Shown: positions 12,535 to 55,091, counted from the stretch's first letter. The stretch is 64,000 nt of DNA from an uncultured Desulfobacterales bacterium (GCA_964428565.1 CAYRYV010000013.1:1-64000), one strand, 5' to 3'. The notes: generated from the letters alone by a model not told the origin. Program-made: numbers and translations.

Positions 12535-12551
12535 TGTTTAATAATTAAACA
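12535..12551. promoter_or_regulatory. Perfect 8-1-8 palindrome TGTTTAATAATTAAACA in the 464-bp AT-rich gap inside the hdr cluster
   Basis: Related copies TGTACAATAATTAAACA (22934-22950) and TTGTTTAATATTATTAG (about 23448-23464). Confidence 0.4.
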
Positions 12552-14052: not shown

Positions 14053-14070
14053 GGGAGTTCCCTATTCCTG

Positions 14071-16089: not shown

Positions 16090-16195
16090 TTTTTCTCGAC
16101 TCCCACACATGGGGTGACCGTCGGCCAGGGCTCGCAGAGGGCGCTAAATATGACCATATATTGCACGTCCAGGTCAGGCCGTTTCGACATGGCCT

Positions 16196-16657
16196 TCAGG
16201 TTTGCACCGCCGGTTCTTGTTCGCCCGGAACCACAGCCCCCGGTATCCATTGCGGACTCAGAGGACTGGGGCCCAGAGCCTTGACTTTTTCCGTCATTTC
16301 CTTAACCACGGCAACCCATTTGGGGGCATCGGAGGCGGCGATCTCATAGAATGCCAGACGCTCGGCCCCCAGGCCGCATTCTTCCAGTAAGTGCCGTGCA
16401 TATTCCACACGTTCGCGAGCTCTGAGATTTCCTTCCAGGAAATGGCAGGTGCCGGCCTCTCAGCCACCCACAAATATGGCGTCGGCCCCGGCCTCAAACC
16501 CTTTTAAAATATGCAGGATGTCAATCCGGCCGGTGCACAGGTACTTGACGATCCGTACATTGGTCGGATACTGCATCCGGGCCGACCCCGCCATATCCGC
16601 GGCCGTGTAGGTGCAGTAGGTGCACACCAGGGCCAGTATCTTCGGGGAAAATTCCAT
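16196..16657 (-). CDS. mvhD: MvhD paralogue with in-frame TGA (16460-16462) at the position of the conserved Cys (GC-EAGTCHF); proposed selenocysteine-containing MvhD, 153 aa read-through
   Basis: Track ORFs 16460..16657 and 16196..16408 are in the same frame and ~80% identical to the downstream mvhD on both sides of the TGA; the TGA replaces a TGC codon; SD GAGGAGA before ATG 16657. Confidence 0.6.
16427..16443 (-). other. Candidate SECIS-type hairpin (AUUUCCU-GGA-AGGAAAU) starting 16 nt 3' of the in-frame UGA
   Basis: 7-bp perfect stem seen directly in the sequence; the same region in the Cys paralogue has one wobble pair, so this is not discriminating on its own. Confidence 0.25.
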
Positions 16658-16666
16658 CTCGTCTCC

Positions 16667-21211: not shown

Positions 21212-22053
21212 AACAATCCTTTATTCCGCAGTAAAGGCCGGGGGTCCACCAAATGGCGGGCCAGCCAGGCGGCGACCTCCGGGTGCCCCAGGGCCAGTCC
21301 GATCAGTTCGGTGAAATAGAACACCGGCAAGTAATAGTTCTTCCCTGCCTTCTTTGATATGCGGCCCTGGGAGAGGTCCAGATTGGCCTGGCACATCTGG
21401 CAGGCCACCACGAAACACTCGGCCCCGGCCGCCAGAGCCCGGTCATAGAGGCGCCCCACCAGAGTATCAATGAGATCCGGCCGGGCCATCGCCAGGCCGG
21501 CCCCGCAGCAGTCGGTCTTATAGGACCAGTCGAGAGGGTCGGCCTGCAGGACCTGAAGCAGGCGCTCCATATCCTTGGGGTTTTCGCAATCCACCTTATC
21601 CGTGATCTCCGGAGGCCGGGATGCCAGGCAACCGTAGTAGCCCACCGCCTTCAGACCGGTGAGGGGCCGTACCGTCTTCTGTTTCAGGATGGACAGAAAT
21701 GACTCCTGGGAGAGAAATTCCAATAGATCCCAGATCTTTGTCCCATTTTTCCGACCAACCGGAGTCTCTTGCCGGCGGTTCTGCTCCTTTTCGGCGGCCT
21801 TGAGGCGGTTGAAGCACAAGGCGCAGGGGACCACCAAATCCATACCGGTTTGCCGGGCCAACGCCAGGTTGCGAGCCGGCAGTTCCAAAGAGAGTCGATG
21901 GTTGATACTGTGAGCCGCGCTGGCGCCGCAGCAGTTCCAATCCTCCAGTTCCACCAACTGCAGGTCCACGAGGGGAGCGACAGCGGCAATGGAGGCAGCA
22001 TAATCCGCCGCAGTGCCTTCCAAAGAACAGCCGGGGTAATAAGATACCTTCAT
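21208..22053 (-). CDS. hdrB: Heterodisulfide reductase subunit B (two CCG domains)
   Basis: YYPGCS...CCGxxx and YYGC...CCGAG motifs; start at MKVSYYPGC (ATG 22053) after AAGG. Confidence 0.8.
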   Translation of the reverse strand: MKVSYYPGCSLEGTAADYAASIAAVAPLVDLQLVELEDWNCCGASAAHSINHRLSLELPARNLALARQTGMDLVVPCALCFNRLKAAEKEQNRRQETPVGRKNGTKIWDLLEFLSQESFLSILKQKTVRPLTGLKAVGYYGCLASRPPEITDKVDCENPKDMERLLQVLQADPLDWSYKTDCCGAGLAMARPDLIDTLVGRLYDRALAAGAECFVVACQMCQANLDLSQGRISKKAGKNYYLPVFYFTELIGLALGHPEVAAWLARHLVDPRPLLRNKGLL

Positions 22054-22060
22054 AAATGCC

Positions 22061-22642
22061 TTAACCCCCTGCACGTTTAAAGATTTCGTTGATTTCATCC
22101 CGCCCCTTGAGGGCTGGCGGGCCAATCGGGCGTAAGCGGCCGCGTTTGAAGAGGGCCCAACCCAACTTGGCATTTTCCCAAAGCTCCTGAAGTTGCGGTC
22201 GTCGCCGAAGTTGATACAGGGTGAAGCGGCGCATCAACGCCACCTCCGGCAAGCGGCCGCCAGCCCGACGGAGGCTGTCCAGGAAGAAGCGCTGGAAGGC
22301 CGCCACCTCCGGCTGGTCGACGGCTTTGCCCTGCCGAATCGCCTCCTCTTTGAGCCAGTCCATGACCCCGGCGATGTCAATGCCGTTGGGGCAGCGAGTG
22401 GTGCAGGTGACGCAGGAGGCGCAGACCCAGATGGTCCGGCAGCCCAGAAGCATCTCCGTCTGACCCAGGAGAGCCAGGCGTATGACCCGGTCCGGGAGCA
22501 GATCCATGGCGAAGGTCAGGGGACAACCGGCAGAACATTTCTTACATTGAAAGCAGGCGGACAATTGAATAGCGGCCTCTTGAGAGAGACGTTCCTGCAG
22601 TGAAAATGCCGGGGCCAGCGGTTGGTTGATATTGAGTTCCAT
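22061..22642 (-). CDS. hdrC: Heterodisulfide reductase subunit C (2x[4Fe-4S])
   Basis: CFQCKKCSAGCP and CASCVTCTTRCP ferredoxin motifs; SD AGGAG 9 nt before ATG 22642. Confidence 0.8.
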   Translation of the reverse strand: MELNINQPLAPAFSLQERLSQEAAIQLSACFQCKKCSAGCPLTFAMDLLPDRVIRLALLGQTEMLLGCRTIWVCASCVTCTTRCPNGIDIAGVMDWLKEEAIRQGKAVDQPEVAAFQRFFLDSLRRAGGRLPEVALMRRFTLYQLRRRPQLQELWENAKLGWALFKRGRLRPIGPPALKGRDEINEIFKRAGG

Positions 22643-22879
22643 GAAGACAGGCTCCTGATTATCGGTTGGCATCTATGCCCGGGTCAGACCCCATACATAA
22701 CACAAAACAGATTTCAGGCTGCCCGGGGCTTACAGGGCCTTAAAAATTCCTCCGGTCCACTTGGACCCGGACAAAATATATTGTTAATGCAATTTCGTTG
22801 CCATAATTTAAATAGCCGTGATATCGGCATCTTCATTATCAACAAGATGTCTGCCGGGACCGGAATTTGTCGAAATAAC

Positions 22880-22897
22880 CAACATAAGATTGTTCAG
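22880..22897. promoter_or_regulatory. Rex-like operator candidate TTGTTCAGAATTTCACAA in the hdrCB-hdrL-mvhD-metVF promoter region
   Basis: Matches the Rex consensus TTGTGAA-N4-TTCACAA at 12 of 14 defined positions; AT-rich promoter island. Confidence 0.35.
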
Positions 22898-22933
22898 AAT
22901 TTCACAACGTATTAATATTATTGAAATCTATCT

Positions 22934-22950
22934 TGTACAATAATTAAACA
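22934..22950. promoter_or_regulatory. TGTACAATAATTAAACA near-palindrome (second copy of the 12535 motif)
   Basis: 15/17 identity to the perfect palindrome at 12535-12551. Confidence 0.35.
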
Positions 22951-22982
22951 GGCCCCCGTTCCAGAAGGCGCTACGCCTCCAC

Positions 22983-23405
22983 CTAACGAACCGCAACCGC
23001 CCCGGTAGTCAAGACTGCTGCAATGGCCGCTTTGATCTCATCCTCGGTAAAAGGTTTTTGCAGATAGTCGGCAGCCCCCAATTTCAAGGCATCGACAGCG
23101 GAGGCCACGGTGGAATAACCGGTGATGACGATGACTCTGGTTTCGGGCCACTGCCGTCTCACCTCCTTGATGACCTCCATGCCATCAATATCCGGCAAAA
23201 GCAGGTCGGCCAAGATCAGATCATAAGATTTCCGGCGGAACATCTCCAGGGCCAGTTGGCCTGTTTGGGCCCAATCCACTTCATAACCGGCTTCGCCGAG
23301 GACCATTTGCAACCCTTTGGCCACATTGGTCTCATCTTCCATCAACAGAATTTTCGACAACGACGCCGTCTGGGGCCCGGCAGTTGGTGGCAAAGCACAC
23401 ATCAC
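22983..23405 (-). CDS. Single-domain response regulator (CheY-like receiver)
   Basis: KILLMEDE...DLILADLLLPDIDG...YLQKPF receiver motifs. Confidence 0.8.
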   Translation of the reverse strand: MMCALPPTAGPQTASLSKILLMEDETNVAKGLQMVLGEAGYEVDWAQTGQLALEMFRRKSYDLILADLLLPDIDGMEVIKEVRRQWPETRVIVITGYSTVASAVDALKLGAADYLQKPFTEDEIKAAIAAVLTTGAVAVR

Positions 23406-24522
23406 CTTTCCTCTGGGAAAAATGCACTCAGCTACAGGTTCAGCAATCTTCGTGCCTATCCCGGGAATTGGTCATTGTTTAATATTATTAGTTATAACTA
23501 ACAGTTAATAGAAAGAGGGGTGACGGGAAAGCGGGTAGCGTATGTTTATTTATACGGAACTGCAACGAGACATGGATTTTGACTAAATATATTATAATGT
23601 TATGTGGGTATAGAATAATATACACATACGCCGGGTTGCTGAATGCATCAGATAAAAAGGTCTCGCTTAGGTTCTCATACTGGAATTGGCGGCCCTTTGT
23701 TCCCCTCCTCGGGTTGGGGATAAACAAAAAAATTTAATCTTATCAAATTGATGGATTTTTTTTTAAAACCGCCCCCCGTTTTTCGGACATAAGTATTTCT
23801 TAAGCCGCCTGAGCGCTCGAGCCTGTGCGAGCCCTGCTGCCTTGGCCTGCCAGGGACTCAGAAAGGCGTTTGTTCCACCAGCCGCTCCCAAGTGGAGATG
23901 TTCACAAAGCCACGAATCGCTCCCCTCCTGAATGTTACAGAAAACTCGCCCGCAGATGACTCTCCCTCAGGTCCGGATGAGGGGATCGCCTTTACGGCCC
24001 TTCTCCCGGAAAAGCAGGTCCAGGGATTCGCCCGGAAGATACGCAGCACCGCCTCCCGTTTCCGGGAAGCCGTCCAACGTTGGCCCGGGGCCAATGGCCC
24101 CACCTCGTGCGTCAGGCCGCTTATGTGGTCGCCGTGGAGCGCGTCGTGGACGCGCTGAAACTCCGGGGCTGGGTTTAACCCGGGCCCAAGGAACCGATTA
24201 TGCTGGGTTCAGGGGAAAGAATCTGATAATATTTCTCTATCGTTGACAGCCTGCAATGCGGGCAATCAGCGCTGAGAGAGGAAATCCTTACTGGACAATC
24301 GCGTAGATTTCACTGCAAATCTGCTGTAGCACTCGTAAGGGGATGGTTTATCAAGATAATCTGAAAAGATTTCCCTGCCATCCCCTTATTCAGCTTTCTC
24401 ACGGGGGCGGGGGTGTCGGCAAAAGTTGTACCGGCTTAACCGATTATGGCGTAGAAATGGTACAATATGCTGTTCTTTCAGTATAATCTGGCCAACAGAC
24501 TTTTCATGAAATGAGGTGTTAC

Positions 24523-25371
24523 ATGGCAACTTATGATTTTGACAGAGTTATACACATGGCAATGCAGAAAGGCCCCATGCGGGTGATTGTCATTATCGGC
24601 ATTATTCTGTTGCTCTTTCTCTTTACACGTCCATGGGTTCAGGTCGGGGCGGGGGAAAGAGGAGTGGTCCTTAATTTCGGTGCGGTCCAGGAGTATGTTC
24701 TGGGAGAAGGGCTGCACTTCAGAATACCTGTCGTGCAGACGGTGGCCCTCATGGATGTCAAGGTGCAAAAATCCTTGACCAACGCCGCGGCCTCATCCTC
24801 CGATCTGCAGGAAGTCAGTTCGGAAGTGGCGCTCAATTATCACATAATTCCGGATAAGGCGAACATCGTCTATCAGACCATCGGCTTATACTTTAAAGAT
24901 CGCATCATTGATCCGGCAGTTCAGGAAGTGGTCAAGGCGGTGACGGCCAGGTACACCGCCGAAGAGTTGATTACCAAGCGGCCGGCGGTAAGCGAAGCCA
25001 TGCGGACTACCCTGAGTGAAAGACTCCTGGAGCATAATATCGCAGTTGATGCCTTCTCCATCGTCGGGTTCAGCTTCTCCAAGATCTTTATGGAAGCCAT
25101 CGAGGCCAAACAGACGGCCGAACAGCTTGCCCTCAAGGCGCGCCGGGACTTGGAGCGGATTAAGATCGAGGCTGAACAAAAGATTACCGCGGCCACGGCA
25201 GAAGCGGAGTCCTTGCGGCTTCAGCGGGCCAATATCTCTCCCGATCTGATCGAGTTGCGCAGAGTTGAGGCCAATCTCAGGGCCATAGAGAAGTGGAACG
25301 GCATTCTACCGCAAGTTACCGGTGGCGGCGCAGTGCCGTTTATCGGCATCGGGGAAACGCCGAGGCGATAA
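24523..25371 (+). CDS. SPFH/band-7 (prohibitin-like) membrane protein
   Basis: N-terminal TM helix, SPFH core, C-terminal coiled-coil (EAIEAKQTAEQLALKARRDLERIKIEAEQ); SD GAGGTG; lower GC. Confidence 0.8.
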   Translation: MATYDFDRVIHMAMQKGPMRVIVIIGIILLLFLFTRPWVQVGAGERGVVLNFGAVQEYVLGEGLHFRIPVVQTVALMDVKVQKSLTNAAASSSDLQEVSSEVALNYHIIPDKANIVYQTIGLYFKDRIIDPAVQEVVKAVTARYTAEELITKRPAVSEAMRTTLSERLLEHNIAVDAFSIVGFSFSKIFMEAIEAKQTAEQLALKARRDLERIKIEAEQKITAATAEAESLRLQRANISPDLIELRRVEANLRAIEKWNGILPQVTGGGAVPFIGIGETPRR

Positions 25372-25397
25372 TCGAAAAAACTGAAACGGGTGAGCAA

Positions 25398-25690
25398 TGC
25401 TGCAAGCCCAGATGATAGGCAGCGGCATACCGGCGTTGGACGAAATCCTGGATGGGCTGCGGTGGGGGGATAATGTCGTCTGGCAGGTGGATGGACTTGA
25501 TACTTACCTGAGAGTGGCCCTTTGTCCGGCAGGCCCTGCAAGACCGCCGTACAGCCATCTACATGCGTTTTAGCCTGGATGCCAATATCCTCGAACCGCT
25601 TTCCGGGTATATCACCGAAGAAGTTGGCCCCCGACCCGGTTTTGAGTCGTGCGGCTTTTTGAATGGTATGCCACCGGAAAATACTCACTG
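25398..25690 (+). pseudogene. Decayed, frameshifted fragments of an ATPase-like gene (remnant of a RecA/KaiC-superfamily GIPALDEIL..GL motif) next to the tRNA pair
   Basis: Short ORF MLQAQMIGSGIPALDEILDGLRWGDNVVW... continues in another frame and lacks a P-loop; no intact gene. Confidence 0.3.
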
Positions 25691-25853
25691 AAACAGCGGA
25701 AGCTTCTGGATTTCATACGTTCGAACTGCACGTTATAAGGATGGCGAGCTGCAGCCGGAGTTCAGGCAACCATTTGATATGATTTTCAAATATAGCCAGG
25801 AAGCCGAAAAAGAAAAAGCAGAAAATCCTGATGGTCTTCCGCCTTTGGAGGTA

Positions 25854-25931
25854 TGGCGTCCCCAACCGGATTTGAACCGGTGTTGCCGGCGTGAAAGGCC
25901 GGTGTCCTGGACCAGGCTAGACGATGGGGAC
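25854..25931 (-). tRNA. tRNA-Glu (anticodon UUC)
   Basis: Cloverleaf read by hand: acceptor GUCCCCA/UGGGGAC, anticodon loop CUUUCAC, T-loop UUCAAAU, CCA encoded; close match to E. coli tRNA-Glu. Confidence 0.85.
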
Positions 25932-25936
25932 GCTTG

Positions 25937-26012
25937 TGGTGGGCCGTGTTGGACTCGAACCAACGACTCTCTGCTTAAAAGGCAGATACTCTACCGACTG
26001 AGTTAACGGCCC
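25937..26012 (-). tRNA. tRNA-Lys (anticodon UUU)
   Basis: GGGCCGU...ACGGCCC acceptor, anticodon loop CUUUUAA, T-loop UUCGAGU, CCA encoded; 5 nt from tRNA-Glu. Confidence 0.85.
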
Positions 26013-26409
26013 AAACATAATATTCATAAACTGCGCTCCGCTGTTTGTCAAGGCAATCTGCGGAGTTCTTATGCGTTAACCCAGCGGTTCGGGCCGAGTT
26101 GATTGGGGGAGAATATACCCGATCGTCTCCGTGAAGGCAAGCAGTAAAGTGCAGGTTTGTCAACAGCACGTCCAGATGTCCGGTTTTCATGGCACAGGTA
26201 CTGTCCGGTTGACTTTTGGGAAGAGTTCTCATGTCATCGCGAGGTCACACTGGATGACCGGGCCACGCCGGGGAGCGACCCGGGAGCCGGAGTGAGCCCG
26301 GGGATGGAAGAGCAGCACGTTTCCCATTGCCAAGTTTTCCCCTCTGCGCGACCCCCCGGGCGATGGAATCCGGGGTTCTGAGGGCTGGCCCTCAGGGTGG
26401 CGCACCCGG

Positions 26410-43481: not shown

Positions 43482-46400
43482 GCCGTCAGGTCCCCGGAAA
43501 CCTCCACGATCTGCTCTTCGTCCAGATAAATCAGCAGGCCCCGCACCGACCGCCGGCCGGGCTCCCGGCGCAGTTCCGGCAACCCCGCCAGCAGCCGCAG
43601 GTACCACCGCACCTGATCGCCATGGTCATCACTGGGTTTGCCGGTCTTATACTCCAGCACCACCGCCTCGGTGTCGGTTACCGTCAGATGGTCCAGCCGG
43701 TAAACGGCCCCCTGTTCATCCAGTATTTCCACCTCCGCCTGGCCCTGTTCCTTTAAGGAGACCAGTTCCGGCACCCCCAGAACCCAGGTGAGCCGCTTTT
43801 CCAGGTCAACCCGCATCCCGGGATCCAAATGCGGCCGGGGAGCATACGCCAGCGCCAGGTCTACCGCCCGGCGGGCATCGGCGGCCGGATCACCGCGGGG
43901 ACGCACATATTCCAACGCCAGGTGGGCCAGTTCCCCCCGGCGGCGTTCGCGGGTCGCTTCTTCTTCCAGGTTGTTGCGGAAGATCTTCAGCCCGGGCAGC
44001 CAGGCCATGGGCATAAAACCAGCCTCCGGGACGTGAGCCTCCGGCTTGAACGCTTTCAGAGGCTCCCCTGACGCGGGTTCGACCGCCTGTCTCCGGGCCG
44101 GCCGCGGCGCGCCGCTGGTATAGCGTACTCCGCTTTCTGCCGGTCCCAGGCATGCCAGCAGGACGGCCAGACCCGCCGTCAAGGGGGAGCCCCCTTTCTG
44201 GGAATCGTTGCGGGTTATAAAGGCGTAAAATTCGTCCACCGCCCGGGTCCAGGCCACGTAGACCAAGTTGAGGCTTTCCAACAGCGCGTCGCGTTGGTAG
44301 CGCCAGTAGTTTTCCCCCAAATCCGTAGTCAACGGCACGATGATCCAATCATCCCCCCACGCCGTCTCGGTCAGCCGCTCGGTTTTTACCGGCCAGTGAT
44401 GGAAGGGAACGATTACCACCGGAAATTCCAGCCCCTTGGCCTTGTGGATGGTCATGACCCGCACCGCCTCGACGTTTTCCGGCAAAGGAGCCCGTTCCTT
44501 AACCCCGTCGCGTCGCCAGTAGTCCAAAAAGGCCGCCAGCGATTGGCAATCGTGTTCTTCTGCCAGATGCACCAGTTCCAGGAACCGGCGCAGAAAAATC
44601 TCGTCCTCGGGATAACGTCCGAGGAGTTGAAAATGCTTGATGATCTCCTGGATCACATCATAAGGGCTCATTAACCCGCTCTGCCGGTAAAAAGGCTCTA
44701 TCCACGTACGCCACGGGCCGGGAAAATCACGTTGGAAAGTCTTGTACAGGGAAGGGCCGGTCTGCCGGGCCAGCCATGCCACCAGGACCTCCGGGCCCAG
44801 GCCGCTCACCGCCTGAAACACCTCGGCTCCCGACACGAAATTCCAAAAATCCAGGTCATGGTCGGGGTAATCCAGAAAACTCAAAAAGGCCAGAAGCTGT
44901 CGGATGAGCGGGTGGTCCGCCAGATGCAGGCTGTTTTCCGTCACCAGGGGAATCCCCCAGTCAATCAGCCAGCGGGACACCTCCTCCGCCTCCTGGTTGC
45001 GGCGCACTAAAACGGCCACGTCGCCCCATGGCCGCCGCCCCTGCAGCTCCCGGAGTATCTGGTGCAACGCCGCCGCTGCCTGTTCCTCCAGGTCCTCCTG
45101 GTGGCGCCCCCGGAGCTCCCGCAACTCCACATACCCCCCCTCCCGCTCCGGGGCCGCGGGCATGGTCTGTTCCGCCTGCCGGTAGGCGTTCTCCAGGGTG
45201 TCTGCCAACTCCGCCGTCCATAGCGGCGGCGCCTTGTCTCCCGCCAGGGCCCGGGCCAACCGCCCGCAGATTTCCCGGTCCTGCAGTTGCCCGAATATCC
45301 GGTTGGTGAAGTCCACCAGGGTCTGCCGGCTGCGCCAGTTGTGGGGCAGGTATTCCGCCGCCGGCGGCTGGCCTCCCAGATCCCGGGCCGCCTCGTCCAA
45401 CAATTGCCAGTCCCCGCCCCGCCAGCCGTAAATGGCCTGTTTGACGTCCCCCACCAGCAACAGGCCGCCCCCCTGATCCCGGCATTCCCGGGCCAGGGGC
45501 AACAGCGCGCCCCATTGCTCTCTGCTGGTGTCCTGAAATTCGTCGATCAGTAAATAACGCAGGTTGGCCCCCAATCGGCACAGGGCCAGGGTTACGCCCC
45601 CTCCCGCCCGCAGCAGTTGAGTCACGGCCCGCCCCCAGGTCCGCCCGGAAACAATCCCCGACCGGTGCGGATACGTGGTGAAATCCCGGGCCAGCACCTG
45701 TCCTATGGCCGCGAAAGGCAGCCAGTGCAATGCCTGGGAGATGAGGTGCCGTTTCCGGCGGTAATCGGTGTAGGCCGCTTTGAACTCCTGGTAACGGGCG
45801 GTGGCGGCAGGGGTTGTCCGGGAACGTGAGGCTTTGCTCAGACACTCCTCTAAACTGTCCTTCTCGGCAAACTTCGAGTCCGGCAACGCCCCCCCGGGTG
45901 TGCCGGCGGCCAGCTTGGTTAAAAAAGTGCTGAAGTGATGCACGCCGCTCAGGTCAGCGTCATGCATCGCCGCCATCAGGGATTCCCGGGCTGCTTGCAG
46001 CCGCCCATGGCTCTCTTCCAGCCCCCGCTCCAGGTCGGCGGCCGCTGCCAGGCGCAACTCCTCCCGGCCGCTGAGATACTCGAAGGCCTGCTGGCTTCTC
46101 TCCCGCAACGGGGTGTCCAGGCGGAATCCCGCCTTGCCCTCCCGGAAGATCAGGCTGTCCAGGGCTGCTTCCAGGAGATGACGCTCCGGGTGGCCCCCTT
46201 GCTCTGCCCGGAATAAGAAGGCGTCGAACAGGTCCTGGAAGATCCTCGTATCGTCGAACTCCACCGTGAAGTCGGGGGACAGGCCGAGGTCAAGGGCCCC
46301 GAGGCGCAGGCAGAGATGCAACAGGCTGTCGATGGTGCGAATATTGAACTGCTGATAGCCGCGCAACAGGAGGGTCAACCACCGGGACGCCTGCCGGGGG

Positions 46401-46663
46401 GTTAAGGCCGCCGCCGGCCCGTCGGCCTCCTGCCCCAGGGCTCGCCGTTTCAGGCTGGAGATCACCCGCGCCTTCATCTCCGCCGCCGCTTTGTTGGTGA
46501 AGGTGATGGCCATGATCTCTTGCCACCCGTAGCCCTCGCCGTCCCCCGACAGGACGCAGGCCGCCAGGGGCTGCTCCTCGGAACCGGCCAACAGCTTCAG
46601 GAAAAACTGGGTGAGCGCAAAGGTCTTGCCGCTGCCGGCCGAGGCCTTCACCCGTCTTAACAT
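43478..46663 (-). CDS. AddA/UvrD-family ATP-dependent helicase-nuclease subunit
   Basis: ASAGSGKT Walker A, ITFTNKAAAEM, DEFQDT, TIHKAKGLEF, C-terminal RLDHLTV...VLEYKTG nuclease motif; SD GGAGGG. Confidence 0.8.
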   Translation of the reverse strand: MLRRVKASAGSGKTFALTQFFLKLLAGSEEQPLAACVLSGDGEGYGWQEIMAITFTNKAAAEMKARVISSLKRRALGQEADGPAAALTPRQASRWLTLLLRGYQQFNIRTIDSLLHLCLRLGALDLGLSPDFTVEFDDTRIFQDLFDAFLFRAEQGGHPERHLLEAALDSLIFREGKAGFRLDTPLRERSQQAFEYLSGREELRLAAAADLERGLEESHGRLQAARESLMAAMHDADLSGVHHFSTFLTKLAAGTPGGALPDSKFAEKDSLEECLSKASRSRTTPAATARYQEFKAAYTDYRRKRHLISQALHWLPFAAIGQVLARDFTTYPHRSGIVSGRTWGRAVTQLLRAGGGVTLALCRLGANLRYLLIDEFQDTSREQWGALLPLARECRDQGGGLLLVGDVKQAIYGWRGGDWQLLDEAARDLGGQPPAAEYLPHNWRSRQTLVDFTNRIFGQLQDREICGRLARALAGDKAPPLWTAELADTLENAYRQAEQTMPAAPEREGGYVELRELRGRHQEDLEEQAAAALHQILRELQGRRPWGDVAVLVRRNQEAEEVSRWLIDWGIPLVTENSLHLADHPLIRQLLAFLSFLDYPDHDLDFWNFVSGAEVFQAVSGLGPEVLVAWLARQTGPSLYKTFQRDFPGPWRTWIEPFYRQSGLMSPYDVIQEIIKHFQLLGRYPEDEIFLRRFLELVHLAEEHDCQSLAAFLDYWRRDGVKERAPLPENVEAVRVMTIHKAKGLEFPVVIVPFHHWPVKTERLTETAWGDDWIIVPLTTDLGENYWRYQRDALLESLNLVYVAWTRAVDEFYAFITRNDSQKGGSPLTAGLAVLLACLGPAESGVRYTSGAPRPARRQAVEPASGEPLKAFKPEAHVPEAGFMPMAWLPGLKIFRNNLEEEATRERRRGELAHLALEYVRPRGDPAADARRAVDLALAYAPRPHLDPGMRVDLEKRLTWVLGVPELVSLKEQGQAEVEILDEQGAVYRLDHLTVTDTEAVVLEYKTGKPSDDHGDQVRWYLRLLAGLPELRREPGRRSVRGLLIYLDEEQIVEVSGDLTA

Positions 46664-47150
46664 CCTCTGCCCTCCCTCACCGCCGCTTGCCCCCACCGTC
46701 TGCCCCGGTGCTCCCGGCCGGCGCCGCCCCGATCATCTCTACCCCCATGCCGGCCGGGGCGCGGGATACTCCCCCGCCCGGTTTCACCTCCCGCACCCGC
46801 CAACCGACCCGACCCTGCTCTGCCTTTACCGGATATTTTATCTCCCGGCCGGCGGAAATTTCCCCCCGGAAATGTATTCTTGTGTTTTTTTAAAATTTTA
46901 CCCTCGCCGCGGCGTTTTTTTGATATAATTATTTTTATCTGTATCAACATACCGTATTCTCATGACGATTATCCCGAAAATCGAGTAATGCCTTTCTTCT
47001 CGAGGTGTTGTCCCGTCAGTCTGTCCGGTTTGACGGGAGTGCGGGGTGATGACCTGGCGTGACCGGCAAAAATGGCGGGGCCGGCGCCGACGGGAAGATG
47101 TTTGCCGGGGACCTCTTGCATCGCTTACTAGCAATAACTATCTCTAAACC

Positions 47151-47825
47151 ATGACTCGATCCGAAACCTTCCCGTTACTGCCCACGGGGGTGATGCGGCA
47201 CAACGGTCACGTAACCCGTTGGGATCGCAACCTCCTGAACCGTCATCCCAGCGGCTTGTTATGGTTTACCGGCTATTCCGGCGCCGGCAAATCCACTCTG
47301 GCCCACGGCGTGGAAAAGGAACTCCACAACCGCGGCATCCGCGCCTATGTCTTGGATGGCGACAATGTCCGCAGCGGCATCAATGCCGACCTGGGGTTCA
47401 GCCCCGCCCACCGGCGGGAAAATCTCCGGCGCACCGCCGAAATCTCCCGACTGCTCGTTGATGCCGGGCTTATCGTGCTGGCCTCCTTCATTTCTCCCTA
47501 CCGGGCGGATCGGGCATTACTGCGGCAAACTTTTCTCCGGGATCATTTTTATGAAATCTACGTGAAATGCTCGCTGGCGGAATGTGAACGCCGGGACCCC
47601 CGGGGTAAATACCGCATGGCGCGCCAGGGCCTCATCCGGCATTACACCGGCATCTCTGCCCCTTACGAAGAGCCGGAGCATCCCGATCTGCTCATCGATA
47701 CCGAAGTAACCTCCGTGGCTGACGCCATCCGCCTGATCCTTGCCTTCATGGCCCGCAAAGAGCTGCTCCGGCCCGCCCCCGCCGATTCCCCCCCGTCGAA
47801 CCTCTGGGAGGAGGCTTCCCCCTAA
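47151..47825 (+). CDS. cysC: Adenylyl-sulfate (APS) kinase
   Basis: LWFTGYSGAGKSTLA P-loop, LDGDNVR, SFISPY motifs. Confidence 0.85.
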   Translation: MTRSETFPLLPTGVMRHNGHVTRWDRNLLNRHPSGLLWFTGYSGAGKSTLAHGVEKELHNRGIRAYVLDGDNVRSGINADLGFSPAHRRENLRRTAEISRLLVDAGLIVLASFISPYRADRALLRQTFLRDHFYEIYVKCSLAECERRDPRGKYRMARQGLIRHYTGISAPYEEPEHPDLLIDTEVTSVADAIRLILAFMARKELLRPAPADSPPSNLWEEASP

Positions 47826-47952
47826 GCCCGCCGGCCCCCGTCTCCCCGCAGATTATCTCCCGCCGTCTCTGGCGTCACGAAAATATTGTGGTATAATAGC
47901 CCCGTTGTGCGTACATCCGGGCAACGCAGCGTCCTTCTAGGTGAAAAAATTT

Positions 47953-49230
47953 ATGCGCGTAGGCCGAACCGTCGCCGGCGACCTCCCCCTTATCCACCAC
48001 CAGCGCCGCAGGTCGCGTTTTTTGAAAGTTGTCAATGCCCTGGGGAGCGCCGTGGGTGGTGGCGGGGTCAATCTTTTCCCCCTCACCGAAGACTACCTCC
48101 TCACCCGGGCGCGGCAGCAAACCGGCCTTGACGACTTCGGGGATGAGGGCTTCCGTAAACCCTTGCGGGTCTTGCTGGACGCCTTTCCCGCGGGCGCCCG
48201 CTTGAACTTTGTGGGCCGCCTCTGCGTCCAAGCCGATCTGCTCCGCCTGCTCACCAACCGCTTGCAACTGGTGGCCGACCGCCGGCGGTATCCGGAGATT
48301 GGCGCCGAAGTCATTCGCCGGCCCTGGTTCATTACGGGGCTCCCCCGCAGCGGCACCACCTTTCTCCACGCCTTGTTGGCCCAGGACCCGGCCGGCCGGG
48401 CCCCCCGGGTGTGGGAGGTCATGCATCCCTCGCCGCCCCCGGCAACGGCCGCCTATCACACCGATGACCGCATCGCCCAAACCGCCCGGGAGTTGTGGTG
48501 GCTGCGCGTCCTCATGCCGGACTTCCATCGGGTGCACCTCATCAATGCCGCCCTGCCCCAGGAATGTATTGCCATCACCGCGCACGCCTTTTTGAGTTAT
48601 GTGTTCGAATCCATGTATTATCTGCCGGACTATCGCCGCTGGCATGACGCCCAGGACAAGGTCCCGGCCTATGAGTACCACCGCCGCTTTCTCCAGCATT
48701 TGCAATGGCGTTGTCCCGGGAGCCACTGGGTGCTCAAGGCGCCCAGCCATGCCCTGGCATTGGAAGCGCTGGTGCAGGTCTACCCCGACGCCGGCGTCAT
48801 CATGACCCACCGCGACCCACTCAAGGTTTTACCGTCGTGCGCCAGTTTCACCGAAGTCATGCGGCTGGGATTCATCGACCACCAGGATCGGCGGGAACTG
48901 GCCCAGGAGATCTGCTCCCGCTGGCAGCATGGCTCCCGCCTGATCCTCGAGTCTCATCGGCATCAGCTCCTGTCCCCGTCTCAGCGTGTGGATGTCCACT
49001 ACCCCGATCTTGTGAGGGACCCCTTAAGCGTGGTGCGGGATATCTACCGGCAGTTCGACATGGAATTTTCCAGGCCCGCTCAAGAGGCCATGAAGCGCTT
49101 TCTGGCGGCCCATCCTCAGAACAAAAAGGGCGTCCACCACTATGCCCTGGAGGATTTTGGCCTGCGGGCCGACGAGGAAGCGAGCCGCTTCAAATTCTAT
49201 ACGGATTATTTCGATATCAAGCCGGAGTGA
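47953..49230 (+). CDS. Sulfotransferase-family protein (PAPS-dependent, Sulfotransfer_3-like)
   Basis: 5'-PSB motif ITGLPRSGTTFL, 3'-PB region; directly downstream of cysC. Confidence 0.7.
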   Translation: MRVGRTVAGDLPLIHHQRRRSRFLKVVNALGSAVGGGGVNLFPLTEDYLLTRARQQTGLDDFGDEGFRKPLRVLLDAFPAGARLNFVGRLCVQADLLRLLTNRLQLVADRRRYPEIGAEVIRRPWFITGLPRSGTTFLHALLAQDPAGRAPRVWEVMHPSPPPATAAYHTDDRIAQTARELWWLRVLMPDFHRVHLINAALPQECIAITAHAFLSYVFESMYYLPDYRRWHDAQDKVPAYEYHRRFLQHLQWRCPGSHWVLKAPSHALALEALVQVYPDAGVIMTHRDPLKVLPSCASFTEVMRLGFIDHQDRRELAQEICSRWQHGSRLILESHRHQLLSPSQRVDVHYPDLVRDPLSVVRDIYRQFDMEFSRPAQEAMKRFLAAHPQNKKGVHHYALEDFGLRADEEASRFKFYTDYFDIKPE

Positions 49231-49349
49231 TACGCGGTCCCGGCCTGCCCCCAAATTTCTCTTATCGGTATCCGGTGCGTTGCCATGGTTTTCCACCCCC
49301 AATATCCTTTGCCTGTCCCGTTGCGCCTATCTTCCTGCAGGACTGACCG

Positions 49350-50309
49350 GTGCGCCGTTTCACCCTGATCCTCACCCTGCTGGCGGTGGTCTTTCTGGCC
49401 TGGATGCTTCATCAGGTGGGTTGGGACCTGCTGCTGGCGCACATCCGCCAGGTGGGCTGGTATTGGCCGCTGCTGCTGCTCCCTTACGGCCTGGTGAACC
49501 TTTTGGGAGCGGTTTCCTGGAGGTATCTCCTGATCTCGCCGGCATCGCGGCCGTCGGTGTCCCGGCTCTTTTGGTTGCGCCTGGCGGGCGAGTCCCTGAA
49601 CCAGTTGACTCCCACGGCCTCCATGGGCGGCGAGCCCTTCCGCGTGACCCGGCTGGCCGCCGACGGCGTGCCCTGGCAGGAAGCCGCCGCCTCGGTGGTC
49701 ATTCAGAAGGGCGTCATGGTTACCAGCCTGGTGCTCTTCATCTGCGTGGGGCTGGCCCTGGTGCCCCTGGTGCTCCCGGAGTCCGCCGCCCACCTCGGCT
49801 GGCTCAGCCTGGCCACCCTGGTCCTGGGCAGCGGCGGCGTGGCCTTTGTCATCGTCCAGCGCAAGCATCCCTGCACCGGCATCCTGCGCCTGTTGGAAAA
49901 ATGCCGCCTCTGCCCCGCCGCCCTCAAGGCCAAAGAAGCGGAGCTGGCCAGCCTGGACGCCGCCCTGGCCGGGTTTTACCGGGACCACCCCCACCGGGGG
50001 CTCCTGGCCTTCCTGCTCTTCTTCCTGAGCTGGCTGCTCCATGCCGTGGAGGTCGCGGTCATCTTCTGGCTGCTGGGCCACCCCTTGGGCTGGGGGCTGG
50101 TCGTGGCGCTGGACGCCCTGGCCATGCTCTTCGCCGGACTGGGTTTCATGATTCCGGTTTCCCTGGGGGTGCAGGATGGCGGCAATATCTTGCTGGCCCT
50201 GGGTTTCAACCTGGGAGCGGCCCTGGGCGCGGCCTTTTCCGTCCTGCGGCGCTTGCGGGAGGCCTTCTGGCTGGCCCTCGGGCTGCTAGTGGCGGTCCGG
50301 GAAAAATAG
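49350..50309 (+). CDS. Flippase-like/lysylphosphatidylglycerol-synthase TM-region family membrane protein (UPF0104)
   Basis: 8 predicted TM helices, LAGESLNQLTP...GGEPFR motif. Confidence 0.65.
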   Translation: MRRFTLILTLLAVVFLAWMLHQVGWDLLLAHIRQVGWYWPLLLLPYGLVNLLGAVSWRYLLISPASRPSVSRLFWLRLAGESLNQLTPTASMGGEPFRVTRLAADGVPWQEAAASVVIQKGVMVTSLVLFICVGLALVPLVLPESAAHLGWLSLATLVLGSGGVAFVIVQRKHPCTGILRLLEKCRLCPAALKAKEAELASLDAALAGFYRDHPHRGLLAFLLFFLSWLLHAVEVAVIFWLLGHPLGWGLVVALDALAMLFAGLGFMIPVSLGVQDGGNILLALGFNLGAALGAAFSVLRRLREAFWLALGLLVAVREK

Positions 50310-50375
50310 CATACCCGCTCCCCGGCGCTCTGCCCTCCCCTGCGACTTTGCCGCGGCATAACGACGAGGAACCCG

Positions 50376-50780
50376 ATGAACAAGATACAGCCCGGTCTGA
50401 CCGGTGAGGCCGCACTCGTGGTCGAGGAGAAACACACGGCCCACCACCTGGGCAGCATCGGCGTGCACGTCCTTTCGACCGCGGTGCTGATCGCCCTCAT
50501 GGAGCAGGCCGCCCGCGACCTGATCGACCCCCTCCTGGAGGCGACGCAGCTGACCGTCGGCACCGCAGTCAACATCAAGCACCTGGCGGCCACCCCCGTG
50601 GGCCGCCGCGTCACTGCCCGGGCGGAGCTGTTGGCCGTCCGGGGACGACATCTGACCTTTGCCGTCGCAGCCTATGACGGCGACACCCAAATCGGCGCCG
50701 GAACTCATTCCCGGGCCATTATACGCCTGGCCCGTTTTCTCGCCCGGCTGCCGCGCCACGCCTCCGGGAAAACATCCTGA
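50376..50780 (+). CDS. Hotdog-fold thioesterase-superfamily protein
   Basis: 134 aa, HxxG...central helix pattern (HLGSIGVHVLSTAVL). Confidence 0.7.
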   Translation: MNKIQPGLTGEAALVVEEKHTAHHLGSIGVHVLSTAVLIALMEQAARDLIDPLLEATQLTVGTAVNIKHLAATPVGRRVTARAELLAVRGRHLTFAVAAYDGDTQIGAGTHSRAIIRLARFLARLPRHASGKTS

Positions 50781-51198
50781 GCGGCTGCGCTGACTCCCCA
50801 CCGACCCCCAGCGACCGGGATAGGCCCCCACGGCCCTTCCCTGTCCTACCACCGGGCATACGGGTCCGGACCCGGCGGTTCGGAGGGCGCCGGCCGGCGG
50901 CCACCCCTGCCGCCACCCCGGGCGGCGTTTAAAAAGACTGGCGAGACTTTGTTCGACTGAGAGGTTGGACGGCAGGGGCGGCCTCTCCGGCCGCTGTTTC
51001 CGGATGAGGCCGGGTGTGGACGGATTAATTCTTAACAGACTGCAACTTGGTATAAGATGGGCGTTGGGCGCGGACTGCCGTCTCCGAGCTGTGGTGCCGG
51101 CCCGGCCCCCACGCGCAACCCGGCGGCGTGATGCCGCCGGGTTGCGGTTCCCGGGCTGTCGCTGAGCCCGCGTGGCCCCATCTTCGCCTGCTGGGGGC

Positions 51199-52185
51199 TT
51201 AATTTACCAGGCGGGGGGGGGCCAGCACCCCGTAATTGGCGCCGCCCGGCACCGAGGCCCCCGGCCCCATGCCCAGGGACAGGGGAATGCCCTTGACGAA
51301 TTTATCCCCGCCCGTGGCGTCCACCTGCGTCACCCGGAAGACCAGGAAGCCCTTCACCGGTTTGTTTTCGTTGAACTGGGTCGAATCCACCACCGGCAGG
51401 GTCACGTCCCAGGAGCCCCCGTGGCCGGCCAGCTTCTGCGCCAGCAATTGCAGTACCGAAGTGATCACCCCGTTGTTCAGGCTGATGATGTCGCCCACCT
51501 TGATGGGCGGACAGCTGCCGTTGTTGATGTAGTCGCTTAAGGTGCTGGCGCTGGCCGAATCCGGCGGCACCGAAAACCAGCCGCCCACGTCCGAGGTCGA
51601 GGGGTTGAAGGTGATCTTCTCCGGGTTGCCGCTCTTGGCGTAATCCTCGTTGATGGCGATGGGGACGGTGCCGGCGCCTACGCCCCTCACCCAGTCCATC
51701 ACCGCCGTGGCGCTGGCGGACTCATCGACCGCGTTGATCCCGAAGATCCGGGCGAAGGCCATGGGCACGCCGTTCTTCCGGATGGTCACCCGGACGGTGT
51801 TGGTGAAGGAGTTGCACTGCTGGATGAACTGCCGGGTGGAGTAATCCCAGGTGCCGGTCTCCACCGTCGTGTCTTCCCGGGCCGGCGCCGTGCCTTCAAT
51901 GGGGTTGTTGGCCGCCGCCGCCCCCGCCCGCGCCTCGGCCTGGGCGCAGTTGGGCGGCGAGCCGTAGGTGATGTTGTTGAGAATGTCGGGGTACAGGCCC
52001 CGGGCCCCCGCCAGCGCCGAGGCGTCCGCGGCCCGCTGCAGTTCGCCTTTGACCCCGATGATATGGCCGATGTCCAGGGCCAGACCCACCACCCCCAACA
52101 GGGCGAACAGCCCCAGGGCCGTCATGGCCGCCACTGAACCCGAGTCGTTGCGGCGGAATGTCTTCCAGAATGATTGCATAGCCAA
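51199..52185 (-). CDS. TadG-like Flp-pilus assembly pseudopilin
   Basis: N-terminus FRRNDSGSVAAMTALGLFALLG (TadG N-terminal motif); SD AAGGA. Confidence 0.65.
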   Translation of the reverse strand: MAMQSFWKTFRRNDSGSVAAMTALGLFALLGVVGLALDIGHIIGVKGELQRAADASALAGARGLYPDILNNITYGSPPNCAQAEARAGAAAANNPIEGTAPAREDTTVETGTWDYSTRQFIQQCNSFTNTVRVTIRKNGVPMAFARIFGINAVDESASATAVMDWVRGVGAGTVPIAINEDYAKSGNPEKITFNPSTSDVGGWFSVPPDSASASTLSDYINNGSCPPIKVGDIISLNNGVITSVLQLLAQKLAGHGGSWDVTLPVVDSTQFNENKPVKGFLVFRVTQVDATGGDKFVKGIPLSLGMGPGASVPGGANYGVLAPPRLVN

Positions 52186-53357: not shown

Positions 53358-55091
53358 TCAGGGCGTCGCCTCGGGTTCCTCCAGGGCCGCCAGGGCCTGC
53401 CGGGCGAAGTTCAGTTCCGGGTCCAGGTCCAACGCCAGGCGCAGCAGATGGGCCGCCTCCCGGGGATGGCCCAGTTCCCGCAGGTTGATTCCCAGGTTGG
53501 CGTAGTCGATCCCCGAGCCCGGGTCCAGCTCGATGGCCCGCTCGAAGCACTCCGCCGCCCGCTGGTGTTCCCCCAGCTTGAAATAGCAATATCCCAGCAG
53601 ATGGTGGACCTCCTTGAGGCCCTCATTGGCGGCCCGGGCGGCCAGCAGGGCGGCCTCCGCCCCCCGGTAGTCGCCCAGGTCCTTCAGGCAGGAGCCCAGA
53701 TGCGTGTGGACGCTGGCGATCTCCGCCGCCGGGGGGCCGGCCGCCAGCGACGCCCGGAAGAACTCCAGGGCCTCCGCCGGCCGTCCCAGCCCGTCCAGGC
53801 TCAGCCCCAGAAAAAACAGCACGTCGAAGCGCCCGGGGAAAGCCGCATTCAGCCGGCGCAGGGCCTCCAGGGCGTCGGCCGGGTAGGCGTGGCGGCCGGC
53901 CAGCTTGGCCAGGTGGAAGATGACGTTGGTGTCCCGGGTGCGGGCCAGAAAATGCGCCCCCGGCACCATGACGTAGACCGCCGGCATCTGTATCGCCGGA
54001 TGGGTCGCGTCCACCGCCAGCACCTCCAGCCCCAGCCGATCCAAGGCCGCGACGCACCGTTCGATCTCTACTTTGATATTGTCGTGGGCCAGATTCGGCA
54101 GGGCATGCAACGGCGTCACCGGACCCGGTTGGGTCAGGTAGGCCGCCTCCGTCAGCGTGGCGTACTTGGGGAGCGTCGGGCGGTACGAGGTCTTCTTGTT
54201 GAAGTCGCCGGCCAACTGCGCCACTTCGGTGAGGGCCCGGATCAGGGACTTCTCCGGGTCCGGGGTCGTCCCGGCGGTGAACACGATCTCGCTGGCCTCC
54301 GGGAAGGTCGCCGGATCATAAGCCAGCACCCCCACCGTGGGGATGCCGGTGTCCAGGGAGAAGTCCCGGATGTGCAACTCCACCCCCCGCCTCCGGAACT
54401 TGTCCAGCAACTGCCGGGCGACCGGGTCCTGCACCGAATCCGGGTCGAGGCGCGGCGTGAACAGGCGTTCGTGGCTGATCACCGACCCCACGTGCCGCTC
54501 CACCACCTCGCACAGCCCCTGGAGGATGGCCTCCTCCAGGGTGTTGCCGGCGGCCGGGCCGTTGTATTCGTTGATGAGATAGAACCAGTAGATGGGGATG
54601 TCCACGGTCCGGCCGCGGGTCAGGTTGGCGGCCCCGGTGAAATGCAGGGGCCAGTCCTGATAAAGCCCCGCCGCCCGGGACGCCTCCGGGGAGGTGTCGA
54701 ACAGGGAGCGGGCCAGGGCCGCGAACGGCAGGGGGTTTTTCATCTGCCGGGCGGTGCCGTAAACGAACTCCCGCCCCTTCATGAAGCTGAAGAAGCTGAA
54801 CCGCTCCACCAGTTCCATCAGGGCGCTGGCCTCGGCCTGGGCCGGGGTGGAGCCTTTGCCCATCTGCTTCTGGGTGCCGATGGTGCGCACCGCGTCCACT
54901 CCGCACAGGCTGATGTACACCGGAATGTCCAGGCGGCCGGAATCGATGCGCATGGTGTTCTTCAGCAGGTCCAGTTCCAGGGCGGCGAAGCGCTGTCGCA
55001 CCCGGGCCGCCGTCTCCTCCGGGGTGCAGACCTTGTCCAGGTCGTAGGTATAGTGTTTCACACAATCTTGCAGGTTCCGCGGTATGCTCAT
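53358..55091 (-). CDS. ycaO: YcaO-domain protein of the E. coli YcaO type (YcaO ATP-binding domain + C-terminal TPR repeats)
   Basis: 577 aa; YcaO core in the N-terminal ~400 aa; C-terminal TPR repeats (HLGSCLKDLGDYRGAEAALL..., GYCYFKLGEHQRAAECFERAIELDP...). Confidence 0.75.
   Translation of the reverse strand: MSIPRNLQDCVKHYTYDLDKVCTPEETAARVRQRFAALELDLLKNTMRIDSGRLDIPVYISLCGVDAVRTIGTQKQMGKGSTPAQAEASALMELVERFSFFSFMKGREFVYGTARQMKNPLPFAALARSLFDTSPEASRAAGLYQDWPLHFTGAANLTRGRTVDIPIYWFYLINEYNGPAAGNTLEEAILQGLCEVVERHVGSVISHERLFTPRLDPDSVQDPVARQLLDKFRRRGVELHIRDFSLDTGIPTVGVLAYDPATFPEASEIVFTAGTTPDPEKSLIRALTEVAQLAGDFNKKTSYRPTLPKYATLTEAAYLTQPGPVTPLHALPNLAHDNIKVEIERCVAALDRLGLEVLAVDATHPAIQMPAVYVMVPGAHFLARTRDTNVIFHLAKLAGRHAYPADALEALRRLNAAFPGRFDVLFFLGLSLDGLGRPAEALEFFRASLAAGPPAAEIASVHTHLGSCLKDLGDYRGAEAALLAARAANEGLKEVHHLLGYCYFKLGEHQRAAECFERAIELDPGSGIDYANLGINLRELGHPREAAHLLRLALDLDPELNFARQALAALEEPEATP

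Follow-up and report, generated by a model that had tools for sequence, protein, structure and literature searches.

The window analyzed here, a stretch of 64,000 nucleotides (nt) from an uncultured Desulfobacterales bacterium (GCA_964428565.1 CAYRYV010000013.1:1-64000), carries four open reading frames (ORFs) on the plus strand between positions 47151 and 50780. These encode an adenosine 5'-phosphosulfate (APS) kinase (cysC), a Sulfotransfer_3 sulfotransferase (ST), a membrane protein with an LPG_synthase_TM domain (LPG_TM) and a hotdog thioesterase of the FlK type. The original prediction, made from the sequence alone, had described the genes as a dedicated module that sulfates an acyl- or lipid-linked acceptor and moves it across the membrane, and all four were recovered with the ORFs, domains and positions that it had given. 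The locus is present in identical form in two independent Logan assemblies and comprises the following features, including two promoter-like motifs:

46921..46929, plus strand: TGATATAAT, extended -10-like motif, ~220 nt 5' of cysC (TGNTATAAT match; putative function)
47151..47825, plus strand: cysC, APS kinase that converts APS into 3'-phosphoadenosine 5'-phosphosulfate (PAPS) (PF01583 APS_kinase, 1.7e-58; TIGR00455; NF003013)
47889..47897, plus strand: TGGTATAAT, second extended -10-like motif, ~55 nt 5' of the ST start (TGNTATAAT match; putative function)
47953..49230, plus strand: PAPS-type ST of the mycobacterial Stf1/Stf9 kind, 425 amino acids (aa), soluble (Sulfotransfer_3, 1.9e-41; the ORF opens with GTG at 47941)
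49350..50309, plus strand: HpnL-like polytopic membrane protein (LPG_synthase_TM/UPF0104, predicted MprF-flippase-domain-like fold), 319 aa (PF03706, 1.7e-31)
50376..50780, plus strand: FlK-type hotdog thioesterase, probably not a member of the module (PF22636, 8.8e-35; 4HBT, 7.5e-07)

The intergenic gaps measure ~127 nt between cysC and ST, 119 nt between ST and LPG_TM and 66 nt between LPG_TM and the thioesterase. Comparative analyses are based on 80 genome loci, fetched via ST and searched with the four window proteins, and on 80 metagenome loci fetched via the LPG_TM protein as a reciprocal test. CysC scores above the curated cut-offs of TIGR00455 (221.9 bits, cut-off 138.7) and NF003013 (244.6 bits, cut-off 163), and its translation displays the P-loop GYSGAGKST, which follows the pattern GxxGxGKS/T, as well as the motif LDGDN with the expected DGD. 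A PAPS-supply gene, cysC or cysNC, is located directly 5' of ST in 8/44 loci. The cysC-ST arrangement is found in Desulfobaccales-like genomes, the two genes overlapping by 4 nt in a Desulfobacca acetoxidans metagenome-assembled genome (MAG; L036), and some Geobacter-type loci are organized as cysD-cysNC-ST-LPG_TM. This recurrence supports the proposal that the kinase provides PAPS for the ST. Homologues of cysD and cysN were not detected in the 64-kilobase (kb) window by tblastn, and sulfate-assimilation genes, cysH and cysIJ included, were not found among the 20 other long ORFs that were scanned with Pfam as a subset of the window's ORFs, in agreement with the earlier view that the cluster is not the usual assimilatory cys operon. 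The scanned ORFs fit an anaerobic Desulfobacterota chromosome, with Hdr/MvhD/MetF-type proteins, FeoB, AddAB-like nucleases, a Tad pilus and a YcaO-TPR protein.

The ST probably starts at ATG 47953, yielding 425 aa, rather than at GTG 47941, since an AGGTGA sequence is positioned 8 nt upstream of the ATG. Another gene caller's start, TTG 48022, is disfavored because it would cut off RSRF, a conserved stretch at the N-terminus. Nearly all residues of the motifs GLPRSGTT (5'-phosphosulfate loop), KAPSH and THRDP...S (3'-phosphate) are invariant among 24 homologues. In the 425-aa protein, PRSGTT begins at residue 131 and HRDP at residue 286, followed by the conserved S; the invariant positions are R136, G138, T140, H290, R291, D292, P293 and S299 in the numbering of a 429-aa protein. 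The maximum 19-residue hydropathy is 1.22 and no transmembrane segment is apparent, therefore the ST is considered soluble. A profile built from the 24 homologues retrieves two full-length matches in the PDB, 2zq5_A (E 4e-75, positions 41-406) and 2z6v_A (E 1.5e-69, positions 40-418), both of which include the N-terminal domain of ~125 aa. In BLASTP, the window ST is 33% identical to 2ZQ5 over 372 residues and 32% identical to 2Z6V over 390 residues. These entries are labeled as uncharacterized proteins in the PDB and are taken to be Stf1 of Mycobacterium tuberculosis (2ZQ5) and Stf9 of M. avium (2Z6V), neither of which is known to have an assigned acceptor. The remaining PDB matches, among them tyrosylprotein sulfotransferases and the olefin synthase sulfotransferase (4gox, a weak match with E 0.0038), cover short segments only, such as the P-loop-like motif, and Stf0-type structures are not among the PDB matches of the profile. 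No curated NCBIfam family fits the ST, the only match being NoeE with 20.8 bits against a cut-off of 500. Given these full-length PDB matches and the lack of a fitting NCBIfam family, the ST is assigned neither to Stf0 and NodH, the families initially suggested for comparison, nor to NoeE or any housekeeping enzyme, the last of these groupings having been named as grounds for abandoning the module.

Mycobacterial Stf3 is presumably a member of the same family as Stf1 and Stf9. According to the published account, Stf3 is encoded in the cyp128-stf3 sulfomenaquinone operon and sulfates menaquinone-9 hydroxylated by CYP128, an isoprenoid lipid alcohol (PMC7404182). In neighbor-joining (NJ) trees, the clade of the window ST (69% bootstrap) is placed beside STs that adjoin HpnL genes or reside in hopanoid clusters; this simple NJ analysis used 100 bootstraps, its deep nodes are weak, and Stf9 lacks a stable position. 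STs of the same type are also found at the C-terminus of polyketide synthases (PKS), in P0489 (2511 aa) and P0470 (1159 aa), which carry PKS modules with an acyl carrier protein (ACP) and a thioesterase (TE). The domain order of P0489 is KS-AT-KR-DH-ACP-TE(PF00975)-ST, unlike that of CurM (ACP-ST-TE). These PKS-fused STs branch outside in the NJ tree.

The membrane protein encoded downstream of the ST matches LPG_synthase_TM over residues 10-305 (PF03706, 110.2 bits, cut-off 33.4) and passes the TIGR00374 flippase-like model (61.7 bits versus a cut-off of 43.2). Its best match in NCBIfam is TIGR03476, HpnL, with 148 bits at a cut-off of 195.65, and HpnL is likewise the best curated match of all delta-clade partners tested (113-146 bits, sub-threshold). 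The partners of other ST homologues exceed this cut-off, namely those of L051 (308.9 bits) and L071 (277.5 bits) and the fusion protein P0496 (229.5 bits). The bifunctional MprF model NF033480 gives 23.6 bits against a cut-off of 600, and the window protein corresponds to the transmembrane domain only, lacking the C-terminal aminoacyl-phosphatidylglycerol (PG) synthase. An AlphaFold2 model based on 25 homologues is all-helical and confident (pLDDT 85.5, pTM 0.81). The earlier count of eight transmembrane segments is approximate; hydropathy resolves 6-7 strongly hydrophobic segments plus amphipathic ones. The highest TM-scores in the PDB belong to the MprF membrane domain, represented by the Pseudomonas aeruginosa structures 9j8q_A (TMq 0.58, probability 1.00) and 9j8s_A (TMq 0.54) and by Rhizobium tropici 7duw_A (probability 0.97), so that the label "flippase-like" appears reasonable at the level of the predicted fold.

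The two genes are recurrently paired. Within the clade of close ST homologues (at least 53% identity), LPG_TM follows directly downstream on the same strand in 25/45 loci with enough downstream sequence. The partners fall into two subtypes: 19 belong to the window type, and the other 6 share no more than 29-34% identity with it. The pairs are hosted by Geobacteraceae, Syntrophobacteraceae, Desulfarculales and Desulfobaccales-like genomes. Geobacter-type loci present ST-LPG_TM gaps down to 12-70 nt, and cultured ST carriers are available among Geomonas, Geotalea and Geomesophilobacter isolates. A HMMER search of 1.84 billion cluster representatives with an ST profile yielded 3175 clusters at E<=1e-30. 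The 762-aa protein P0496 (L169, 8001-10289) combines an N-terminal ST (342 bits to the ST profile), a Pro-rich linker and a C-terminal HpnL (TIGR03476, 229.5 bits). As the same 762-aa protein is encoded on four separate metagenome contigs, it is not regarded as an assembly artefact. Its neighbors look alphaproteobacterial (phasin, PEMT, LysR) and include no hpn genes within 8 kb, and its ST groups with HpnM-linked alphaproteobacterial STs in the NJ tree. This fusion is the strongest evidence that ST and an HpnL-type protein act as a unit, and the location of the ST at the N-terminus of the membrane domain would fit a cytoplasmic PAPS-using enzyme attached to an N-in membrane protein. With the pair kept across several orders and phyla and a natural fusion at hand, the coupling of sulfotransferase and flippase-like protein suggested in the original prediction is borne out at the level of gene organization, and ST and the HpnL-like protein are likely to be functionally coupled.

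The fourth gene does not share this pattern. A FlK-type thioesterase linked to ST or LPG_TM was absent from the other loci, with 0/80 among the genome loci and 0/80 among the metagenome loci. The closest syntenic relative, whose ST is 77% identical to that of the window, retains the upstream synteny and reads AddB-AddA followed by cysC-ST-LPG_TM-moeA, with no thioesterase. Orthologues of the thioesterase (61-64% identity) adjoin SOUL-domain genes in unrelated contexts. The thioesterase was accordingly rejected as a pathway member and is considered a bystander, since it is missing from ST loci, replaced by moeA and found elsewhere in unrelated contexts. Judged by comparative gene context, only cysC, ST and LPG_TM appear to constitute the conserved unit. 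Of the proposed dedicated sulfation module, the PAPS-dependent unit with a flippase-like protein is thus retained and the thioesterase is not; likewise, a lipid acceptor is plausible, and the exclusion of the thioesterase leaves no evidence for an acyl-thioester-linked one.

Hopanoids serve bacteria in place of sterols and have given rise to the most abundant molecular fossils. Distant ST homologues with 41-48% identity over their full length reside in true hopanoid clusters, a connection that was absent from the original prediction. In L051, hpnN (911 bits, cut-off 752), hpnL (309 bits, cut-off 196) and ST are arranged in this order in a tight operon. In L060, the gene order is hpnN-hpnA-squalene synthase-nudix-hpnH-hpnM-small ORF-ST, followed after 36 nt by shc and then dxs, with hpnH (534 bits, cut-off 225) and shc (642 bits, cut-off 431) well above their thresholds. 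Additionally, ST is found together with hpnN, an hpnG-like gene and shc in a member of the Thermodesulfobacteriota (L052), it is divergent from hpnA-like, hpnN and hpnG-like genes in L064, and it adjoins hpnL (277 bits) in a member of the Nitrospirae (L071). In six alphaproteobacterial loci, a gene of the hpnM family is located beside ST (179 bits for a representative, cut-off 160). Among loci with an ST identity below 53%, ~14/30 contain at least one such hopanoid-type gene within 8 kb. The D. acetoxidans MAG is closer to the window, with 59% identity between the two STs, and carries a bona fide hpnH (411 bits, cut-off 225) at a distance of 2.3 kb from cysC-ST. The pairing of ST with HpnL, their fusion and the presence of ST in hopanoid clusters are undescribed in the literature searched, and the components themselves are of known kinds. 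No link between hopanoids and sulfotransferases was found in this literature; the supplements of a 2026 hopanoid synteny preprint contain generic sulfotransferase entries only.

Further neighbors of ST vary with the lineage. The alphaproteobacterial hpnM-ST loci (L069, L073, L074, L078, L080 and L082, from Acetobacteraceae and other alphaproteobacterial MAGs) usually include a cytochrome P450 gene and in some cases a TauD-family dioxygenase and an LLM-type monooxygenase. The resulting P450-ST pair parallels cyp128-stf3, and the TauD-like gene may encode a dioxygenase that acts on sulfate esters. In MAGs of the Desulfarculales and Syntrophobacteraceae (L032, L039 and L043), a CDP-alcohol phosphatidyltransferase of 450-490 aa, similar to inositol-phosphate synthases and extended at its N-terminus, is encoded between ST and the HpnL-like gene. 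SPASM-type radical SAM and B12-radical SAM genes flank it; this gene set may represent a different lipid head-group pathway. Three Desulfobaccales-like loci (L005, 9434-14535; L009; L036, 4082-5917) contain a gene for an ArnT-like polytopic glycosyltransferase in convergent orientation to cysC-ST, and L005 also contains a GT2 gene and an HpnJ-like B12-radical SAM gene (189 bits, sub-threshold).

Taken together, cysC, ST and the HpnL-like protein are interpreted as a three-gene lipid-sulfation module to which the thioesterase is unrelated, with a probability of about 0.5. From its family membership, CysC phosphorylates APS to PAPS, and a plentiful supply of APS would be expected should the host, like its relatives, reduce sulfate. 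Using PAPS as the donor of the sulfuryl group, the soluble ST would then modify a hydroxyl group on an isoprenoid lipid of the membrane from the cytoplasmic side. The genomic context points to an extended hopanoid, sulfated on its polyol side chain, as the likeliest acceptor. The HpnL-like protein may take over the anionic lipid and most likely moves it to the outer leaflet, from where an HpnN-like resistance-nodulation-division (RND) protein with MlaC-like HpnM, or an EmrAB-TolC-type pump in one lineage, may carry it outward. The ST and HpnL-like pair would thereby resemble a split MprF with a sulfotransferase in place of the aminoacyl-PG synthase. The product is probably a sulfated membrane lipid that has not yet been described. 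The specific assignment of a hopanoid as the actual acceptor is tentative. The same caution applies to the wider proposal that sulfated hopanoids, e.g. bacteriohopanetetrol sulfate, might occur in several phyla (Desulfobacterota including Geobacter relatives, hopanoid-producing Gamma- and Alphaproteobacteria, Nitrospirota), made by an Stf1-like ST with HpnL as the partner or translocase for head-group-modified hopanoids, and might have been overlooked since standard work-ups and positive-ion mass spectrometry lose sulfate esters; as a whole, this proposal is possible at best.

Several observations weigh against this interpretation. The L036 locus is the only delta-clade locus with a bona fide hpn gene nearby. 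Elsewhere in this clade, the HpnN-like RND proteins of L023 and L048 (~513 bits) and two HpnM-like proteins of L026 (96 bits) are sub-threshold, as is the window's membrane protein for HpnL, and such Hpn-like neighbors may be paralogues handling another lipid. Within the 64-kb window, tblastn detected none of shc, hpnN, hpnM, hpnA, hpnG, hpnH or P450 and radical SAM partners, and a sulfated hopanoid is not reported in the literature searched. The structural likeness to MprF is accompanied by weak Foldseek E-values (0.04-0.1), the top match by E-value is CitS, and searching PDB sequences with the LPG_TM profile returned nothing at E<=1. About half of the close ST homologues are solitary, with no adjoining LPG_TM, and ST is located upstream in only ~16/80 of the metagenome loci chosen by LPG_TM. 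In ~39/80 of these loci, mainly from one derived clade, LPG_TM is found behind a TetR/TolC-like/EmrA/EmrB operon. The acceptors of the ST family are lipid-like but not uniform, as concluded from the PKS-ACP-TE fusions P0470 and P0489 and from the non-hpn neighbors of delta-clade loci. Finally, gaps of 119-127 nt and an internal promoter-like motif make co-transcription uncertain, and the motifs suggest that a pair of similar promoters is used in place of a single operon transcript.

The latter point refers to the extended -10 consensus TGNTATAAT, which has only two matches on both strands of the window (0.23 expected by chance), one upstream of cysC (46921) and one upstream of ST (47889). A relative (L086) presents TGCTATAAT upstream of its cysC, and the motif upstream of ST is not clearly conserved there. 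The intergenic regions are poorly conserved in comparison to the 77% identical relative, and conservation of the TGNTATAAT sites is partial. Between the genes, a promoter and terminator consensus scan of positions 46600-51300 revealed nothing informative and no terminator-like hairpin, and an Rfam search (E<=1) of positions 46400-51300 detected no RNA family. As the ~215-nt cysC leader also has a fold z-score of 0.05, there is no evidence for a riboswitch.

In the EmrB-linked metagenome loci, LPG_TM does not follow ST but forms the last gene of an operon with TetR, a TolC-like outer-membrane protein, HlyD-EmrA and an EmrB transporter of the major facilitator superfamily (L091, L094, L105, L106, L123, L126, L140, L144 and ~30 others). 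In an unbootstrapped NJ tree of LPG_TM, these EmrB-linked genes belong mainly to one derived clade, sister to the window protein and L087, and the ST-linked state is distributed across basal branches. Because of this clustering, the ~39/80 count of EmrB-linked loci is taken to be inflated by a single abundant lineage whose LPG_TM and ST genes were separated, and such a separation fits the many solitary STs. It could also be argued that the genes are unlinked neighbors, with an ST acting on a soluble metabolite, peptide or polysaccharide and a merely syntenic LPG_TM that has its own role, e.g. with efflux pumps. The solitary STs, the majority of sampled window-type LPG_TM genes that follow an EmrAB-TolC-type operon with no ST beside them and the 119-nt gap in the window would agree with this explanation. 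However, the ST-HpnL fusion on four contigs is difficult to accommodate, two LPG_TM subtypes are found paired with ST, as is bona fide HpnL in three other phyla, the gaps shrink to 12-70 nt in Geobacter-type loci, and the ST-less LPG_TM genes are non-independent observations if, as in the unbootstrapped tree, they derive mainly from one clade; the explanation is therefore viewed as unlikely. The proposal that the same module acts on a non-hopanoid acceptor (e.g. a derivative of menaquinone, a lipid of the phospho-inositol or ether type, or a sugar linked to polyprenol), with an HpnL-like paralogue translocating the product, is doubtful yet more probable. It draws on the scores below Hpn cut-offs of the membrane partner and of the RND and MlaC-like neighbors in delta-clade loci, on the CDP-alcohol phosphatidyltransferase between ST and LPG_TM and the radical SAM and B12-radical SAM genes of several delta loci, on the ArnT-like and GT2 glycosyltransferases flanking cysC-ST (L005, L009, L036), on the PKS-TE-ST fusions, which point to other lipid acceptors in the family, and on Stf3, which acts on a menaquinone derivative according to the published account (PMC7404182). 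Conversely, the hopanoid genes shc, hpnH, hpnN, hpnM and hpnL are the sole curated, above-threshold lipid-pathway genes found repeatedly beside ST homologues, the fused partner in P0496 is a bona fide HpnL, and the glycosyltransferase and CDP-alcohol neighbors are each limited to a few related loci.

Two further explanations are considered very improbable. In the full form of the original prediction, an acyl- or ACP/CoA-linked acceptor would first be sulfated, then freed by the hotdog thioesterase and finally flipped, comparable to the ST-TE chemistry of CurM and olefin synthase. The position of the thioesterase on the same strand, 66 nt downstream, and the fusion of some ST relatives to PKS ACP-TE modules are compatible with such a route, which is nevertheless largely refuted by comparative context: cysC-ST-LPG_TM is kept in relatives, while the FlK-type gene is lacking at all other ST/LPG_TM loci inspected, also in the syntenic relative with 77% identity where moeA takes its place, and its orthologues have unrelated neighbors. 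Moreover, the TE of the PKS fusions is an alpha/beta-hydrolase (PF00975) and not a hotdog protein, and an ACP, KS or acyl-activating gene is absent from the window's cluster. Hardly more credible is a housekeeping role, in which cysC would serve assimilatory sulfate reduction via PAPS and its adjacency to ST would be incidental. While cysC is indeed a standard APS kinase, cysD/N or other sulfate-assimilation genes were not found nearby, and the cysC-ST adjacency, even with a 4-nt overlap, as well as cysD-cysNC-ST recur in relatives. Sulfate reducers also incorporate sulfide directly, a route for which PAPS is dispensable.

With lipid sulfation by cysC, ST and the HpnL-like protein as the favored interpretation, the module can be compared to several known systems. 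MprF, a lysyl-phosphatidylglycerol synthase/flippase, shares the LPG_synthase_TM domain, is closest to the predicted fold by TM-score (TMq 0.58) and likewise couples a cytoplasmic head-group-modifying enzyme to a membrane domain, an arrangement that is fused in P0496. It differs in that a PAPS sulfotransferase encoded by a separate gene replaces the tRNA-dependent aminoacyl-PG synthase in the window, the charge added by the product would be negative instead of positive, and flippase activity is only predicted. Stf1 and Stf9 share full-length homology with the window ST, including the N-terminal domain and the PAPS-binding motifs, and Stf3 offers a precedent for the sulfation of an isoprenoid lipid alcohol (PMC7404182), with alphaproteobacterial ST relatives adjoining P450 genes as well. 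The mycobacterial enzymes, however, stem from another phylum, are identical in only about one third of positions and have no HpnL-like partner. The hpn clusters are related through HpnL as the best curated match of the membrane partner and through ST homologues beside shc, hpnH, hpnN, hpnM and hpnL. In contrast, the described hpn set comprises no sulfotransferase (bioRxiv 10.1101/2025.07.29.667474; PMC12583986), the window protein is sub-threshold and no hpn gene is present in the window. CurM and olefin synthase also combine a PAPS sulfotransferase with a thioesterase, and ST relatives exist as PKS-ACP-TE-ST fusions; here, the hotdog FlK-type TE is not conserved with ST, the cluster contains neither ACP nor PKS, and both domain order and TE fold differ.

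Other parts of the window contain additional features. A large redox cluster on the minus strand (9386-22173) includes genes for a multi-domain flavoprotein/ferredoxin of 1514 aa, an HdrB-like protein with a CCG domain, MTHFR and a 979-aa protein in which FlpD (MvhD), GCV_H and a molybdopterin-binding domain are fused. The minus strand also encodes, at 53358-55091, a protein of the YcaO cyclodehydratase type that carries a TPR array at its C-terminus. The region 22000-26100 has a low GC content of 0.52-0.53, compared to ~0.63 elsewhere, terminates at a tandem pair of tRNA genes, tRNA-Lys(ttt) and tRNA-Glu(ttc) (25854-26012, minus strand), and may represent an island or insertion site.

The function of HpnL is stated as unknown in recent accounts of the hpn set (bioRxiv 10.1101/2025.07.29.667474; PMC12583986). 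An ST that is fused to HpnL, paired with HpnL-like genes and set between hpnM and shc provides a testable hypothesis for this function, in which a membrane triterpenoid would receive a PAPS-dependent anionic head-group modification and be handled by an MprF-like membrane domain. If true, this conserved orphan gene of hopanoid clusters would gain a function and a new lipid class would be predicted. If the acceptor is another lipid, ST and its partner would still represent a new MprF-like "modify and hand over" pair that would make the cell surface more negatively charged and, in sulfate reducers, draw on the APS of the dissimilatory pathway.

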